Assembly: GCA_045597945.1 (NCBI GenBank) | Contig: JAZLLD010000055.1 | Span: forward strand, 1,985 to 65,984 | DNA from: Bacteroidales bacterium | Lineage (GTDB): Bacteria > Bacteroidota > Bacteroidia > Bacteroidales > P3 | Reading direction: 5' to 3' | DNA: 64,000 nucleotides | Shown here: positions 49,543 through 60,400 of the stretch, one piece after another | Layout: each line of letters begins with the position of its first letter | Numbering within the stretch: the stretch's first letter is position 1 | Position numbers and translations under genes: made by a program | Notes under the pieces: model-generated | Database searches by the model: none | What the model was told of the DNA's origin: nothing | What the model saw: only the letters and a program-made list of their open reading frames with translations

Positions 49543-50472
49543 TCAATCATACATTTGCGCAGCATTTATCAAACCGTTTTTCACCTCGTTCGCAAGCGAT
49601 TGCGGCTTCACCACCTTCAAGAATCGCCCACAACTCAGGATATAAGCCACCAAGTCGCGCGTAGGTCTCATGCGGTATTCAAAATCCACCCAGTCCTCGC
49701 CCTCGCCGCACACACGTTGGCTATGATGGATTGGCAAATCTCGCAGGTAGAAACGTTGCGACTCATAGGCTCGCAACACAATGCGCTGCGGCTTCAAATC
49801 AGTGTTCACCACCACGCCGTAGCTGTCGGCAAAGAATGCCTCGGCATCAAACCCCTCATCCACACTAAACTTCTCATCCGTAAGCCTATACGCCATTATT
49901 CTGTCAAACGAAAACAACGTCAGCCAATCTTTCTCTCCCCGCCGCTCGGTAGCATCGCGGTGCAGCAAGCCAAGCACATACCATCGATGTTTGAAGAGCT
50001 TGAGACAATAAGGCGCAATCACAAACTCGCGACTCTCCTTAGAGCCGTATTTCCGGTGCGAAATGGCCATCTTCACCCCTTGCCGCATGGCCTCAATCAC
50101 AGTCTTCAGCAAGTCGCCCTCCACCGGAGCCGACTCCATCAAGATGCGGTCTTGCAGACTCAGACTATCCGCCACCACATTGTTCACACTAATTGTAGAG
50201 AGCATCCAGTTCTGCACCGAGTCGTCGCGCAACACCTCGGGATTGGCAATATAATAAACATAACCGTCCCTCACATCGCACTCAATCACAATGCCAAAAA
50301 TCTCCTCAATGGCAGCCTTGTGGCGGTTGAAAGTGATGCGCGAAAGCTCCACGCCCTCGCTCAACTCGCAATCCAGCCACTTAGCATTGATATCAGCCAG
50401 CGAAATCCGCCCCGCCCGCCGAATCACATCCACCAACCAAATAAACTCCCTAAACTTAGCGTAATACTTCAT
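49543..50472 (-). CDS. WYL-domain protein (wHTH-WYL regulator)
   Basis: 309 aa. N-terminal wHTH-like region. KHRWYVLG WYL-type motif. ATG lies 3 nt after the upstream stop. Confidence 0.65.
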   Translation of the reverse strand: MKYYAKFREFIWLVDVIRRAGRISLADINAKWLDCELSEGVELSRITFNRHKAAIEEIFGIVIECDVRDGYVYYIANPEVLRDDSVQNWMLSTISVNNVVADSLSLQDRILMESAPVEGDLLKTVIEAMRQGVKMAISHRKYGSKESREFVIAPYCLKLFKHRWYVLGLLHRDATERRGEKDWLTLFSFDRIMAYRLTDEKFSVDEGFDAEAFFADSYGVVVNTDLKPQRIVLRAYESQRFYLRDLPIHHSQRVCGEGEDWVDFEYRMRPTRDLVAYILSCGRFLKVVKPQSLANEVKNGLINAAQMYD

Positions 50473-50475
50473 ATA

Positions 50476-52452
50476 CTATTTCTTGTCTGTTGCTAAAGAC
50501 TTCAAAGCACTTCCCGAACCATCATAAGTTGCTTCAATAAAAGCCTTTGTAAATACATCATGTTCATTGATATTATCAATTGACCATGTTTCATATTTTG
50601 AATACACATATAGCATTTTCAAACTCTCCACATGTCCTTTGTCTACACCAGACGAATATCGCTCCATAACCGCCCGCTTAACCTCAAAACAAGAATTTGT
50701 CAGTGTGCTGTTTTGTCCGGAAGAAATCATAACCATATTTCCAAGACAATCTCTTTTCTCCTTGTTTTCAGGATGTTCTTCGTCATCCCAGTAGAAACGA
50801 TTTTTGTCGCCAAACTCATCTCTAGGGTGCTGGGGAGCGATATGTTCTATTGATCGATTTCTGCGGAAAATATAATTCTTTACCACGGTAGTTTGCTTAC
50901 CCGAGTAAAACAAATCCCTATTTTCCCACAAATAATAGTCCATTCTCCAGAACCAATATCTGTCAATAGTTTGATACTCCAACTTCCCATCCACCAATTT
51001 CTCTTTAGGATGCCAATTATTATCCAATTCTTTCAATTTGGCAAGATACTCATCAGCAGGCAAATACAACGACTTAGTGGTCTTAACGTGGTCTTCTAAG
51101 TACAAAAACAAGGCAGGCATCCACTCATAATACGTCATGGCCGAAGATGCCGAATACAACATGCTTAAATACATTTTCACACGTTTCTTATTAAACTCTT
51201 CACCTTCATACAATTCAAAAGGATAAGGTTCTTCATCCTCATCATCAATTCGGATAATAAAATAATCCATCAACAACCTGTACAATGCCAAGTCCTTGAC
51301 GAATTGCCCTGCATTCAGATTTCTTTTCTCAAATGCCCATTTGAAAGTGTCTCCCAATTTCCTTACATCAAAAAAATCGGTGACATGCATTTCGTCGGCT
51401 TTTAGAATGTCCAAGATATTATTGCCAATACTATCATCACACAAACACCCATAACTCTTCAAGATGCTTATATACAACACTTGCAACAAAAATTCTGAAA
51501 AGAACAAGGGCGAATGCTCCTCGGTTCTTCTCTTTACTAATTTGAACGGATTGTTTGGATTCGATCCAATCTCACCTATAGACATTGATGTGGTCTGATC
51601 ACTAGTCTCGGCATCATCGGCAACATCTTCATCAACATCAAACTTTGCTTTCCCTCGCTCAAAAGTATTACTAATATCCCCTTTTTCAATAATATCCAAG
51701 ATAGCATTCCTATATCGATTTCGCAACTGAGCCTCCTGCTCACCCTTATGCCTGCGCAACATCATCTTTTCCATTATGCTGACAGAATTCCAAACCTGAG
51801 CGCTTAGTTCTTTTTCCGACTCTATCTTCCGCAAAATCTCAACTTTAAGAATCTCATAATTTTCCAACGATTTTCCCGAGGTGTTCATACGCTCAAAGTA
51901 TGTGTTTAATTCCTGGGCATTATACTCATTAGGCAATTCAGAAAGGAAAAATGTCAGATTGTTAAAGATATAGTCTCCAAAATCTTTCTTAGCATTTTCG
52001 TCGTTCCCCAACTTGCATAGATATGAATCAATGGCATTCAACCCAGCCTCCATTTTATTATTCTTTTCCGCAGGCACTTTCCCATCTATCTTATCCATAA
52101 GATATTTCTCGTCCGCATCACGAGCAATGAAACGCAAACGAGGCCGGTCTCCTACCATCAAAAATCTCTCACCCCATCCAAAATATATTCCCAACAAAAC
52201 CATGGCGGTAAAACGCTGCTGTCCATCAACAAGCTCCACTTCACTGCCTCCATTGCGAATATGAGATGTCAACATTCCGATGTAATATGCCGACTCTCGG
52301 TTGCGAAGATAAGAAGCATGCAGGTCATCCAAAAGTTGTTCTATCTGGTCTTTCCCCCATTCAAACAAACGCTGATATAAAGGAATACTAAAAGTTAGAT
52401 TATCTAACTCACTGATTGACTTTGGTGTGTATTTCTTATTGTTTTTCGACAT
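50476..52452 (-). CDS. GmrSD-like DUF262 + DUF1524 (His-Me finger) protein
   Basis: N-terminal IPLYQRLFEWGKDQIEQLLDDL and LVDGQQRFTAM (DUF262). C-terminal RSIEHIAPQHP ... GNMVMISSGQNSTLTN (DUF1524). Start set at ATG 52452 (MSKNNKK) because the listed start at 52476 is TTG. Confidence 0.85.
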   Translation of the reverse strand: MSKNNKKYTPKSISELDNLTFSIPLYQRLFEWGKDQIEQLLDDLHASYLRNRESAYYIGMLTSHIRNGGSEVELVDGQQRFTAMVLLGIYFGWGERFLMVGDRPRLRFIARDADEKYLMDKIDGKVPAEKNNKMEAGLNAIDSYLCKLGNDENAKKDFGDYIFNNLTFFLSELPNEYNAQELNTYFERMNTSGKSLENYEILKVEILRKIESEKELSAQVWNSVSIMEKMMLRRHKGEQEAQLRNRYRNAILDIIEKGDISNTFERGKAKFDVDEDVADDAETSDQTTSMSIGEIGSNPNNPFKLVKRRTEEHSPLFFSEFLLQVLYISILKSYGCLCDDSIGNNILDILKADEMHVTDFFDVRKLGDTFKWAFEKRNLNAGQFVKDLALYRLLMDYFIIRIDDEDEEPYPFELYEGEEFNKKRVKMYLSMLYSASSAMTYYEWMPALFLYLEDHVKTTKSLYLPADEYLAKLKELDNNWHPKEKLVDGKLEYQTIDRYWFWRMDYYLWENRDLFYSGKQTTVVKNYIFRRNRSIEHIAPQHPRDEFGDKNRFYWDDEEHPENKEKRDCLGNMVMISSGQNSTLTNSCFEVKRAVMERYSSGVDKGHVESLKMLYVYSKYETWSIDNINEHDVFTKAFIEATYDGSGSALKSLATDKK

Positions 52453-53770
52453 TGTGACAACTTTTAAATTCTTCAATTAGCAAATAGAGCTTCTCGTTCT
52501 TCTCATACAGTGCCTTTTCCCTTTCAAAAAAATCTCTCCGAATTCCGTCTAAAGTTGAATCATAGAATGGCAACCTTTTGATTATATTTTTAGCTTCGGC
52601 TAAAAAGAATGTTGGCGAAGTAGCCTGGTTAATCATCAGAACGATACCCATTTCCGAGGCATTGTCCATCAACGACTGCTTGTTGGCCTTGCTCTTCTCA
52701 TATCTGAGTTGCGAAACCATGCGAGTAATGCAAGTTAGTGCCTCAGACAAATACTGGTTTCCAAATTTTAAATAGTAAGCAAACAAAAAGGTTGATATTA
52801 CATCGCCATACCACCAATGTGTCCGCACCTTATGCTCTATATTCTCACCCGCTATATCCCTCTTGCCTGAACACGAAATTGTTTCCCATAATATGGCAAA
52901 TTGTTCAGTTTGAATATACTGCCCATATCGCTGAATAAAAGTGTCCACAAAAAAGAAAAAATGCGTGCCCCCTTGGATTGGATCCATGAATTCAAACTTT
53001 TCTCCAAAAGGGGGAATTGCGGTAATAATTGGGGCGGCTTCAAACTCAGTCTTTACTCGGTTAATTTCTTTTACATACCAGTATTGGCGGCGTGTCCATT
53101 TTCTCAAACAATATAAATAGATGCCCAATGTAGTCGACACGCTGCCATCGCCCCCTTCACGCTCACTCCGAACCAACAAATCATCCCACTTCTTAGCCAA
53201 ATGCCGCTGCTGCTGTTCATAGTTCTCTGGAATATACCGCAGATGGTGCGACTTCAGCAATTCATAGTCTGTCAACGACTTCCCTCGAGAATTTTGTGTT
53301 GAGAAAAAGGTGTAGGCCAAATCTATTGACGAATCTTGCAGCGTCAGCACATCAAAACTGACATACTCTTTAATCTGCTGGGATGCTTCTCGCTTTTTGT
53401 CTTGATTAGGAAAGTATCTTTCAATATAATTTTCAACCAAATACCTATTATATCCGATATAATTCTGAGCTTCAACAGAATCAAATTTCTCATTAAGTAA
53501 AGGAATTTCAGTGTCGCCCAATGCACGCAGTATTATGGCCAAAGTTACCAACCTCTGCTGACCATCAATAATATCAAACGCACCATCCTTGAATTGAAAA
53601 ATAACGGTTCCCAAGTGGTATTTGTGCCCTCTCGGCACAAATATATCATCTAGCAATAACTCAACATTCTTCTGTGGCCAACAATAAATACGCTGATACG
53701 AAGGAATACGCAAATTGCGCTCCATGAGTTCACCCAATAGCAGATTTTCCAGAATAACCTGTTCTTGCAT
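52436..53770 (-). CDS. DUF262-domain protein (no recognisable nuclease domain)
   Basis: RIPSYQRIYCWPQKNVELLLDDI and IIDGQQRLVTL motifs. Start trimmed to ATG 53770 (MQEQVILE) because the listed start overlaps the promoter box. Its 3' end overlaps the next gene by 17 nt. Confidence 0.8.
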   Translation of the reverse strand: MQEQVILENLLLGELMERNLRIPSYQRIYCWPQKNVELLLDDIFVPRGHKYHLGTVIFQFKDGAFDIIDGQQRLVTLAIILRALGDTEIPLLNEKFDSVEAQNYIGYNRYLVENYIERYFPNQDKKREASQQIKEYVSFDVLTLQDSSIDLAYTFFSTQNSRGKSLTDYELLKSHHLRYIPENYEQQQRHLAKKWDDLLVRSEREGGDGSVSTTLGIYLYCLRKWTRRQYWYVKEINRVKTEFEAAPIITAIPPFGEKFEFMDPIQGGTHFFFFVDTFIQRYGQYIQTEQFAILWETISCSGKRDIAGENIEHKVRTHWWYGDVISTFLFAYYLKFGNQYLSEALTCITRMVSQLRYEKSKANKQSLMDNASEMGIVLMINQATSPTFFLAEAKNIIKRLPFYDSTLDGIRRDFFEREKALYEKNEKLYLLIEEFKSCHNVEKQ

Positions 53771-53800
53771 AACAATTACATGTATTGTGTAAATTTTTTG

Positions 53801-53808
53801 CAAAGATA
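53801..53808 (-). promoter_or_regulatory. -7 box (TAtcTTTG) of the DUF262 operon
   Basis: Plus strand caaagata within ttgcaaagatacaac, 31 nt upstream of ATG 53770. Confidence 0.5.
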
Positions 53809-53826
53809 CAACTTTTTACTCAATTC

Positions 53827-54228
53827 CTAGGACTTTTTTTTCAATTGCTTTGCCTTATGGGGGTTGGATTGGTCTTCTTCGTTCTTCAGAATGTTGATTT
53901 TCAGGTGGATTTGGCCTTCGTAGTGGGCTTCGGGACAGATGCGGCCAATTGTGCAGCGGAAGATTCTTCCCCAGCCCATATCAAGCATGGCGGCCAAGGT
54001 GGAATTCTCGTTGCGAGGTATGTAGCCGAGATGCACCAGCTCGCCCTCGCCTTCCTCAAACTCACGGCGATACATGACCGCCACGGCATCGTTGTCATAA
54101 CGGTTGTCCAAGTCGCGCTGAAGTTCCAAACGAGTGCCCACTTTCAACTCCGAGAACACTTCATCGAGGTCGTAATACATTGCTCCAGCCAAATGGCATT
54201 CCTTGTAAAACAATTTGTTAGATTCCAT
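53827..54228 (-). CDS. HIRAN-domain protein
   Basis: 133 aa from ATG 54228; the listed start at 54264 is TTG inside the promoter region. LAGAMYYDLD...GTRLELQRDLDNRYDNDAVAVMY...LGYIPRNENSTLAAMLD matches the HIRAN signature. Confidence 0.8.
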   Translation of the reverse strand: MESNKLFYKECHLAGAMYYDLDEVFSELKVGTRLELQRDLDNRYDNDAVAVMYRREFEEGEGELVHLGYIPRNENSTLAAMLDMGWGRIFRCTIGRICPEAHYEGQIHLKINILKNEEDQSNPHKAKQLKKKS

Positions 54229-54432
54229 AATTGCAAGTTTTTTGTTGTTATTTTCAGATTGCAAAATTACAGGCCGCCTGTTTCAAATCGTGATACACCC
54301 CGGAAAATAAAATCATAAAAAATGTTAACAGCAAACAAGCCCAACCATTTTTTCAACTCAAAAAACAAAATGGCAGACTAGAAAATCACACATTCCACAT
54401 CTGCACAAACCCACCGCACTCCCGCTGTAAGC

Positions 54433-54568
54433 CCGTTCCTTATCCTATATTTATACCTTATTTATTCTATAGTTATCCTATATATAATAGTATAACTAAG
54501 GTATAAATATAGTATAACTATAGGATAAGTGGTGGAGGTACGGCGGAGTTGTGGGCGATTTGATGGTG
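54433..54568. repeat. 11-bp-module quasi-palindromic element, copy C
   Basis: Reads ccgttccttat cctatatttat accttatttat tctatagttat cctatatataa tagtataa ctaaggtataa atatagtataa ctataggataa, then aggtacggcgg agttgtgggcg atttgatggtg. Confidence 0.8.
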
Positions 54569-59487: not shown

Positions 59488-60072
59488 CTATCGTATATGC
59501 GTAATCTTGTGAGTCTGAAGTGATAATCTCCATTGCGGGTGCGATTTGCAATATTCAATGGCCTGCACCACATTTCGTTGAGTTGCTTCCGCATTTCCAA
59601 AAACGTCAATTGGTTGCAGACAGAACACCTCAGCATCAAAAGAGGCCCATCGTTGAGGATCATCACTTCCCTCACCAAACAGCAGCTTGATTTCCTGACA
59701 CTTATCCACCACCACTTGTGCCACTTTAGGAGAAATAGTAACCCAGTCTACCCCTTGAGGGATTGGCCGAGAGCCATTCGTCTCCATGTGAACTCTATAA
59801 CCTTGGAAAGCACAGCTAATCAGATCCTCAGTCACTTGCAAAGTAGGTTCGCCGCCAGTGAGGCAGACTCTTTGGCATGGATACTGACTGATTTCGTTGC
59901 GGATATCCTGAGACGTCATCAACCGAAAATCCTCATGCTGCGTGTCGCAAAAAGGACACTGCAGATTGCACCCTGAAAAACGCACAAACACCATCGGCAC
60001 TCCTGCCCATGCGCCCTCACCCTGCAATGAATAAAAGATTTCGTTGATGCGGTATTGCTTGACTTCCATCAT
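59488..60072 (-). CDS. queE: 7-carboxy-7-deazaguanine synthase (radical SAM)
   Basis: EIFYSLQGEG and CNLQCPFCDT motifs. Start trimmed to ATG 60072, directly after the queD stop (60074-60076). Confidence 0.9.
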   Translation of the reverse strand: MMEVKQYRINEIFYSLQGEGAWAGVPMVFVRFSGCNLQCPFCDTQHEDFRLMTSQDIRNEISQYPCQRVCLTGGEPTLQVTEDLISCAFQGYRVHMETNGSRPIPQGVDWVTISPKVAQVVVDKCQEIKLLFGEGSDDPQRWASFDAEVFCLQPIDVFGNAEATQRNVVQAIEYCKSHPQWRLSLQTHKITHIR

Positions 60073-60073
60073 T

Positions 60074-60400
60074 TTATTTTTCGTAAATTGCAGTATTACC
60101 TGATGATTCTTGAACACTTACCTTATAGCAATTCGGCACACGCTGACAAATCCAATAAGCGATGTTTTCTGCCGTAGGATTACAATCCATCAAGTCGTTC
60201 AAATTAGTGTGGTCCAGTTGCTTCACCACTTCGGAAATATGAGAAAAATCCACAACCATTCCATTCTTATCCAACTGCTCCGACTTGCAGAAGACCTCAA
60301 TCACCCAGTTGTGGCCATGAAGATTTGCACACTTGCTATCATAGTCGAGATTCAGGTGGTGAGCCCCTGAAATCTCTATCTTTTTGCTAATATAATACAT
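60074..60400 (-). CDS. queD: 6-carboxytetrahydropterin synthase
   Basis: Start at ATG 60400 (MYYISKKIEISGAHHL); the listed longer ORF would overlap queC by 80 nt. HGHNW motif. Confidence 0.9.
   Translation of the reverse strand: MYYISKKIEISGAHHLNLDYDSKCANLHGHNWVIEVFCKSEQLDKNGMVVDFSHISEVVKQLDHTNLNDLMDCNPTAENIAYWICQRVPNCYKVSVQESSGNTAIYEK

Follow-up and report, generated by a model that had tools for sequence, protein, structure and literature searches.

Within a 64,000-nucleotide (nt) stretch of a Bacteroidales genome (assembly GCA_045597945.1, contig JAZLLD010000055.1, positions 1,985 to 65,984; hereafter, the window), the region 49543-54264 contains four genes, all on the minus strand, in the operon order HIRAN, A, B, WYL. 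The HIRAN gene (53827-54228) encodes a protein of 133 amino acids (aa) counted from an ATG codon; comparison of homologs identifies this ATG as their common start, and an alternative TTG at 54264 would give 145 aa. Gene A (52436-53770) encodes a 444-aa TgvA-like protein with the GmrSD_N (DUF262; Pfam E-value 4e-29) and DUF7834 (8e-27) domains, the motifs YQR (residue 25), DGQQR (69) and FSTQN (156), and no nuclease domain. Gene B (50476-52452) encodes a 658-aa TgvB-like protein combining GmrSD_N (1e-26) with GmrSD_C (DUF1524; 2e-11) and carrying YQR (residue 26), DGQQR (76), FxxxN and the His-Me finger motif EHIAPQ (536), with Asn residues downstream. The WYL gene (49543-50472) encodes a 309-aa protein of predicted winged helix-turn-helix (wHTH)-WYL-WCX organization (WYL, 1e-8; WCX, 5e-9) that belongs to the HIRAN-linked clade described below. 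The HIRAN and A genes are separated by 56 nt, the open reading frames (ORFs) of A and B share 17 nt, and only 3 nt lie between the stop codon of B and the WYL gene. Bacteroidetes-type -7 boxes of the TAnnTTTG form precede the HIRAN gene (P1, TAATTTTG, 54262-54269, minus strand) and the A-B cassette (P2, TATCTTTG, 53801-53808, minus strand), and a 19-nt palindromic, operator-like motif (TGTATCACGATTTGAAACA, 54279-54297, minus strand) is located 9 nt upstream of P1. No terminator-like site was found in the HIRAN-A intergenic region, and the NCBIfam search yielded no match for any of the four proteins. Inspection of the ORFs, Pfam domains and sequence reproduced the gene order, domains, motifs, spacings and both boxes listed in the original prediction for this locus.

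The same four-gene synteny is retained in a relative whose DNA is about 80% identical (L001/L002; L-numbers are labels of the loci gathered for comparison) and in 99%-identical strains (L179/L180), so that the gene order is not a chance juxtaposition, in line with what the original prediction anticipated. That prediction proposed a single four-protein machine, with HIRAN as an integral DNA-end-sensing subunit and the WYL protein as a ligand sensor. The shared strand, the tight spacing and the synteny at 80% DNA identity fit such a machine, as does the recurrence of HIRAN beside GmrSD-family genes, but the comparisons described below make it improbable.

The A-B pair has the architecture of TgvAB, which was described in Vibrio cholerae in two 2024 papers (PMC11411939; bioRxiv 10.1101/2024.04.05.588314) and consists of DUF262-only TgvA and DUF262-DUF1524 TgvB, encoded by ORFs that overlap by 8 bp. 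According to the TgvAB passages of both papers, defense requires the two proteins and both DGQQR motifs, TgvB alone being inactive; T-even phages are restricted via glucosylated 5-hydroxymethylcytosine; the two genes work in Escherichia coli; and Bacteroidales are among the hosts of homologs. The same passages count 1,341 tgvAB pairs versus only 79 embedded in a Type I restriction-modification (RM) operon, so that such embedding is not required for TgvAB. As in V. cholerae (VC1767 and VC1766, in VPI-2), genes A and B are co-oriented and overlapping, with A first; A contains DUF262 and DUF7834 without a nuclease, the same two domains as VC1767 (GmrSD_N, 6e-29; DUF7834, 3e-38); B contains DUF262 and DUF1524 with the His-Me finger motif; and the QR, DGQQR and FxxxN motifs of TgvAB are present in the DUF262 domains of both proteins. 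Alignment to residues 1-399 of VC1767 and VC1766 (Table S5, PMC11411939) gave 30% identity between A and TgvA over 190 aa (E-value 3e-19) and 29% between B and TgvB over 307 aa (2e-27).

Because of this architecture, the detectable similarity, and the presence of such pairs in 55 of 65 loci across phyla (see below), we assign A and B to the TgvAB family, an assignment that architecture and homology make highly likely. The pair is not a new system, its effector being already known and widespread. The original prediction set the pairing of a nuclease-less DUF262 paralog with a GmrSD-like nuclease apart from a lone Type IV enzyme; this pairing is not new, the combination being that of a named system, which for the core pair is one of the outcomes listed in that prediction as refuting it. 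Its broader description of a multi-component, GmrSD-related, modification-dependent restriction candidate is supported. By analogy with V. cholerae TgvAB, A and B together would recognize hypermodified phage DNA and cut it as a nucleoside triphosphate (NTP)-dependent, modification-dependent nuclease, with A as a DUF262 NTPase or sensor and B supplying, beside its own DUF262 domain, the DUF1524 nuclease. The window pair differs from its V. cholerae counterpart in lying outside a Type I RM operon, among HIRAN, WYL and housekeeping genes. Neither HIRAN nor WYL is mentioned in the TgvAB passages of the two papers, neither of which was searched in full for either word.

B shares the complete DUF262-linker-DUF1524 architecture with the single-chain enzymes GmrSD, BrxU and SspE, but unlike these it is always accompanied by an A gene; a sequence search of the Protein Data Bank (PDB) with B matched no solved structure. 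Among the PADLOC models HEC-05 and HEC-06, the HEC-06 models match A and B (each at about 1e-22), but only over the first 70-80 residues or so. Most Bacteroidales homologs of A at 65-72% identity (e.g., P0040) are longer (about 611-625 aa) and carry an extra N-terminal domain (residues 1-170; pattern WH..RY...HYEY.NG.LELHLE...WYGM.QGRLRYE; no Pfam match), which is missing in both the window protein (start at 53770) and its 88%-identical relative, another difference between the window pair and its closest kin. The possibility that this domain of about 170 aa is a fused HIRAN was considered and rejected, given the lack of a Pfam match; it is also unrelated to protein X, introduced below.

To assess the association of A with its neighbors, an alignment of A homologs was used to scan one genome per species, which produced 80 loci. 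A TgvA-like gene was present in 65 of these and was directly followed by a TgvB-like gene in 55, from Bacteroidales, Flavobacterium, Brachyspira, Streptococcus, Treponema, Fibrobacter, Lentisphaerae and Proteobacteria. Of the 55 pairs, 24 had a WYL homolog no more than 8 kb away (13 of 25 if only pairs with full flanks are counted), 20 times upstream and four times downstream; WYL regulators beside Type IV enzymes are a known theme. HIRAN was detected at a single pair, even when a profile search was included, and was therefore rejected as a general partner of TgvAB-like pairs. That one case, L009, is a distant HIRAN gene (Pfam, 2e-11) directly upstream of an A-B pair, with no WYL gene there. 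Thus, the co-occurrence envisaged in the original prediction holds for the TgvB-like partner and, in part, for WYL, but not for HIRAN. The terminal position of the WYL gene, to which significance had been attached, is a minority arrangement among the TgvAB-like loci, although WYL following cargo in the same orientation does recur in the HIRAN-linked clade. Two of the surveyed loci (L027:1674-7514 and L048:4146-11358) encode, in order, WYL, small DEDDh (RNase_T) exonucleases and an A-B pair, with a metallophosphatase after the pair in L027 and a RhuM-Fic protein before the pair in L048.

The relationship between the A-B pair and the flanking HIRAN and WYL genes is clarified by a sister strain. 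In the contig of L171 and L177 (and likewise in L178), an identical RuvX protein is followed by a 98%-identical HIRAN, a single 579-aa GmrSD, WYL, and the DUF362 gene. The window and L177 are 98.4% identical over 58000-53794 and 98.0% identical over 50479-46000, whereas the intervening minus-strand segment with genes A and B (50480-53793; 3314 nt versus 1804 nt in L177) shows no similarity. On the HIRAN side, identity extends through ...GTATCTTTGCAAAAAA, which comprises the P2 box and a few more bases, and then ends; on the WYL side, it resumes at ATATG, at the start of WYL. Given these breakpoints, the P2 promoter, although located ahead of the cassette, and the WYL gene both belong to the conserved frame, and because a one-gene GmrSD takes the place of A and B between 98%-identical flanks, the restriction genes are exchangeable cargo. 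Since the same frame holds a different GmrSD in L177, HIRAN and WYL have not been co-adapted as TgvAB subunits, and a dedicated role of HIRAN within the A-B enzyme is unlikely; together with its presence at only one of the 55 TgvAB-like pairs, this runs counter to the dedicated role assigned to HIRAN in the original prediction and to the four-protein machine as a whole. Interchangeable restriction genes between conserved flanking genes are also known from tgvAB inside Type I RM operons and from HEC genes inside Hma clusters; in contrast to those cases, the frame here consists of HIRAN and WYL genes rather than a second restriction system, and the junctions fall at a promoter shared by the two strains and at a start codon. 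No contig was retrieved when the exact sequence of the window protein A was looked up.

Examination of the neighborhoods of HIRAN homologs at 93 loci (23 clusters at 90% identity) shows that HIRAN and WYL form a conserved pair in gut and rumen Bacteroidales, with different Type IV restriction cassettes between or beside the two genes, a variation that we ascribe to exchange by recombination. In the first type of arrangement, found in many lineages, WYL is directly followed by HIRAN at a distance of about 90-100 nt, and the cargo upstream of WYL varies: McrB-McrC (L087-L090), a small HNH protein (L184), radical SAM genes, or nothing recognizable. In L087-L090 (1092-7517), the order is McrB-like AAA+ protein, McrC, WYL, HIRAN and ADP-ribosylglycohydrolase, so that a second kind of Type IV enzyme accompanies the same HIRAN and WYL families. 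The related contigs L184 (188-2116) and L185 (287-2124) share the WYL-HIRAN pair and differ in the genes immediately upstream of WYL, which encode a 67-aa protein and a 94-aa HNH protein in L184 and a 122-aa protein in L185; this difference suggests cargo exchange upstream of WYL, too. The second arrangement is that of human gut loci (a cluster of 29), where the same four families appear as HIRAN(+), B(-), A(-), WYL(+); the HIRAN and WYL proteins are 53% and 45% identical to those of the window, respectively, and A and B about 30%, over the DUF262 core. The placement of A and B on the strand opposite to HIRAN and WYL is difficult to reconcile with a four-protein machine. In the third arrangement, represented by L126 and the related locus L112, a 580-aa single-chain GmrSD (in L126) comes after WYL, HIRAN and protein X.

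Altogether, the GmrSD-family cassettes beside HIRAN and WYL belong to at least five lineages remote from each other (A and B of the window, GmrSD1 of L177, A2-B2, G126 and G112), four of which are related to each other through the DUF262 core only; G126 and G112 are 42% identical over their whole length. HIRAN and WYL thus accompany GmrSD-family genes repeatedly, in arrangements that are independent of each other, and are non-random companions, as the original prediction implied. We consider it likely that the two function as a conserved pair and that the cargo they frame is exchangeable.

A fourth arrangement combines a UvrD/PD-(D/E)XK helicase-nuclease and a 714-720-aa protein with HIRAN downstream, and no WYL was detected in these loci. 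Genes of this type were observed in rumen Prevotella-type loci (L091:5745-7907, L083:3319-5463, L083:6679-8073, L100:2130-5339); a 464-aa paralog of the 714-720-aa protein is encoded downstream of HIRAN, and between the genes there is often one for a small, 168-aa HD-like protein that weakly matches RelA/SpoT. Neither the 714-720-aa protein nor its paralog has a match in Pfam, PADLOC, NCBIfam or the PDB. This gene set may be an undescribed defense module.

In many rumen and gut loci, HIRAN is immediately followed by a gene for a small protein, X (about 95-108 aa, CQWTFAKTMPWAPHEYIVRGKCPL...YKYWTMG), encoded as a standalone gene in L120 (8362-8688), L126 (8366-8671) and L083 (8099-8386). In human gut loci, protein X is fused to the N-terminus of TgvA-like proteins with 57-66% identity (e.g., residues 1-95 of the product of L132:5662-7497, minus strand). 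It has 392 homologs and a confident AlphaFold model (predicted local distance difference test score, pLDDT, of 90), belongs to no Pfam family, produced no match in a fold search against the PDB, and is absent from the window.

The window HIRAN protein scores well above the Pfam threshold (HIRAN, 4e-12; 46.2 bits versus the gathering cutoff of 24.7), and its AlphaFold model (pLDDT 75) matches lp_0118 (3K2Y; template modeling score 0.81) and the HIRAN-DNA structures of HLTF (Foldseek probability 1.0). The LQRD..N.YD.NA motif is conserved in this family, and its NxYDxNA portion aligns with HLTF, where Y72 and Y93 border the single-stranded DNA (ssDNA) pocket; the window protein holds the residue aligned with Y93, and the second tyrosine was aligned by eye only. 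Although it shares the fold and the NxYDxNA motif with the HLTF domain and lp_0118, the window HIRAN, unlike that of HLTF, has no attached motor or enzyme domain, and all 56 of its homologs examined are likewise standalone proteins (93-137 aa). A 2024 census described prokaryotic HIRAN proteins as functionally uncharacterized. The only role proposed for bacterial HIRAN is that of a predicted antitoxin in operons of HipA-like kinases, a prediction credited to Gerdes et al. By extension, the window HIRAN could be an antitoxin-like brake or inhibitor, shielding the DNA ends of the host against the nuclease cassette, in keeping with the location of its gene upstream of the nuclease genes and with its match to the C-terminal half of the PADLOC candidate PDC-M03B (positions 125-239 of 250). 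We regard such a brake as very improbable: there is no HipA-like toxin at the locus, HIRAN is often encoded downstream of or convergently to the cassette elsewhere, and it also occurs with no nuclease nearby. Membership in PDC-M03 was rejected as well because the match to PDC-M03B is not full-length; other PDC-M03 components were not looked for. Accordingly, of the PADLOC comparisons suggested by the original prediction, the one with HEC-06 connects A and B to known models over their N-terminal portions, and that with PDC-M03B is only partial.

In the WYL protein, the N-terminal region of about 70 residues, with its predicted helix-turn-helix, is DNA-binding-like and highly conserved. In a search against the PDB, a profile of the WYL family best matches PafBC (5e-19), followed by chains of 7U02, 7TZV and 8TP8 (about 1e-16), which comprise WYL-domain chains and a DeoR-family regulator, and only weakly matches CapW (3e-5) and BrxR (5e-4). 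We take 7U02, 7TZV and 8TP8 to be DriD, an ssDNA-activated regulator of Caulobacter. PafBC of mycobacteria and DriD are WYL activators of the DNA damage response that are triggered by ssDNA. The similarity to PafBC and DriD covers the WYL and WCX region, their structures being the best matches among those solved, and the candidate operator of the window is situated directly upstream of the core promoter element, where the sites of PafBC reportedly lie as well; the partners here are HIRAN and restriction cassettes rather than repair genes, and the resemblance is one of sequence only. With BrxR and CapW, the protein shares the succession of WYL and WCX domains after a conserved DNA-binding-like region, but it differs from them in the weakness of the profile matches, in the position of its gene at the end of the operon instead of first or divergent, and in the lack of an inverted repeat at a WYL promoter of its own, the sole conserved palindrome being at the HIRAN promoter. 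The BrxR survey was limited to Proteobacteria. The likeness to transcription factors and the predicted wHTH speak against the WYL protein being a subunit of a four-protein machine.

In a neighbor-joining tree of 59 WYL proteins, all 33 HIRAN-linked proteins form one clade, whose 34th member also comes from a HIRAN locus, and this clade is separate from the WYL proteins of TgvAB loci lacking HIRAN.

The 19-nt palindrome has the consensus TGTmCCAC-GAWTT-GRNACA (ideal form, TGTCCCA-N5-TGGGACA) and is represented by 29 distinct instances. Nearly all HIRAN loci have it, always with a spacing of exactly 9 nt to the TAnnTTTG box downstream, and the position of the box itself is conserved across these loci. 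The copy at the HIRAN promoter is the only high-scoring one in the 64-kb window, and no high-scoring copy was found in 1.03 Mb of HIRAN-less TgvAB/WYL loci. Identification of the palindrome as an SOS box was rejected because it matches neither of the known Bacteroidetes SOS boxes, GGA-N5-TCC and CTAA-N5-TTAG. The adjacent WYL protein is the obvious candidate for binding this motif. Co-variation between the operator and the recognition region of WYL is uninformative because both are too conserved.

From these observations, we lean toward a two-layer interpretation, in which a TgvAB-family effector cassette resides inside a conserved HIRAN/WYL frame. The WYL protein would be a PafBC/DriD-like sensor of ssDNA or a related ligand that controls the HIRAN promoter P1 through the 19-nt palindrome and, via read-through and the internal promoter P2, also the cassette and its own gene; this specific circuit is a tentative proposal with somewhat less than even chances, in keeping with the constant spacing between palindrome and -7 box, the closeness of the WYL profile to PafBC and DriD, and the lack of a terminator-like site between HIRAN and A. 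HIRAN would bind 3' ssDNA ends that arise when restricted or damaged DNA is processed and would therefore be a generic restriction accessory for any Type IV enzyme plugged into the frame rather than a TgvAB-specific subunit. In this capacity, it might limit the recombinational rescue of cut phage DNA or shield host ends. A bolder version, which we consider rather doubtful, is that Type IV cassettes in Bacteroidales plug into a portable dock for sensing and regulation, made up of the standalone HIRAN and its dedicated WYL clade; WYL and HIRAN would then read ssDNA or DNA ends resulting from restriction or infection and, through the 19-nt operator, relay the signal to the expression or action of the cassette.

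Several observations weigh against the two-layer interpretation or narrow it. Over residues 1-399, the portion compared, A and B are only about 30% identical to V. cholerae TgvAB, and specificity is not transferable. The loci were collected by similarity to HIRAN or TgvA, never to WYL, a biased sampling under which the WYL clade may seem more strictly tied to HIRAN than it is. The palindrome is also present at HIRAN loci without a WYL gene within about 8 kb (the type with the UvrD-like helicase-nuclease and the 714-720-aa protein, p720), and no similar palindrome was found near the WYL genes of HIRAN-less loci despite their similar-looking wHTH regions, which leaves the link between WYL and the operator unproven. 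Furthermore, WYL-HIRAN pairs without a recognizable restriction cassette exist at L086, L093, L134 and L152, so that the pair may serve a separate function that has nothing to do with restriction.

This last point is the starting premise of a different explanation, under which HIRAN and WYL are an independent module, for example a DNA damage response pair, that marks a recombination hotspot for incoming defense cassettes without being functionally coupled to the restriction enzyme. Apart from the pairs that lack a Type IV cassette, this explanation is favored by the separate promoter and operator of HIRAN, the unrelatedness of the cassettes accepted by the same frame, the near absence of HIRAN from TgvAB-like pairs, and the function of TgvAB as two genes in E. 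coli, as reported in the TgvAB passages cited above. It does not account readily for the repeated occurrence of Type IV enzymes as the neighboring cargo (five GmrSD lineages and McrBC), nor for the operon-tight linkage, with the WYL start 3 nt downstream of B and the cassette driven from the promoter of the frame. The fusion of protein X, a neighbor of HIRAN, to TgvA-like proteins and the independent occurrence of a distant HIRAN ahead of the TgvAB-like pair in L009 also tell against it. On balance, we consider an independent module unlikely, albeit a serious contender, and retain the effector cassette within a HIRAN/WYL frame as the preferred interpretation.

The locus is embedded among housekeeping genes, with ruvX, def and mutL on one side and the gene for a DUF362 Fe-S protein on the other, and its GC content (0.38-0.44 over 50-54 kb) is lower than the value of about 0.5 in the flanks. 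The ruvX-HIRAN intergenic region contains an AT-rich imperfect palindrome with 76-nt arms (54406-54562), composed of repeats at 11-nt spacing (TTATCCTATAT / ATAGTATAAC), whose membership in the locus is uncertain. Five metagenomic contigs from related strains stop 220-320 nt upstream of ruvX, in or beside the region of this palindrome, which may mark the edge of an island, break assemblies by its structure, or serve as an array of protein-binding sites; a repeated mobile element was rejected because the palindrome is present in a single copy within the window. An empty site, with ruvX adjoining the DUF362 gene, was not found among the related contigs, which break upstream of ruvX. About 5 kb from the locus (59488-60117, minus strand, and further downstream), there are genes for 7-deazaguanine (queuosine precursor) synthesis, namely, a QueE-like radical SAM protein, PTPS (QueD) and QueC, as annotated in the syntenic L171. 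Genes of this pathway also serve DNA modification in other settings; those near the locus are most likely housekeeping genes of tRNA modification.

Literature searches retrieved no paper joining DUF262 with HIRAN and none on DUF7834, and the combination of HIRAN with WYL returned only noise. These searches yielded neither the association of a standalone HIRAN family and a dedicated WYL clade with exchangeable Type IV cassettes nor the 19-nt operator. The new part of the present analysis is therefore the HIRAN/WYL frame around swappable cassettes, together with the operator, the effector being known. For annotation, this pair and many similar pairs of Bacteroidales can be labeled TgvAB-family Type IV restriction rather than a new system, and DUF7834 can be read as a TgvA-specific domain. 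If the frame is functional, a partner regulator, an operator and a recurrent class of neighbors would provide three testable handles on standalone bacterial HIRAN proteins, which have had no known role, and the dock, if it exists, would be the first functional context for HIRAN proteins of prokaryotes. The swap between 98%-identical strains, which took place at a fixed, regulated chromosomal site, would then amount to a natural experiment on the diversification of modification-dependent restriction in gut and rumen Bacteroidales. Finally, in a functional frame, the greater proximity of the WYL protein to PafBC and DriD than to BrxR would suggest that some defense loci may be wired to a DNA damage-type signal.

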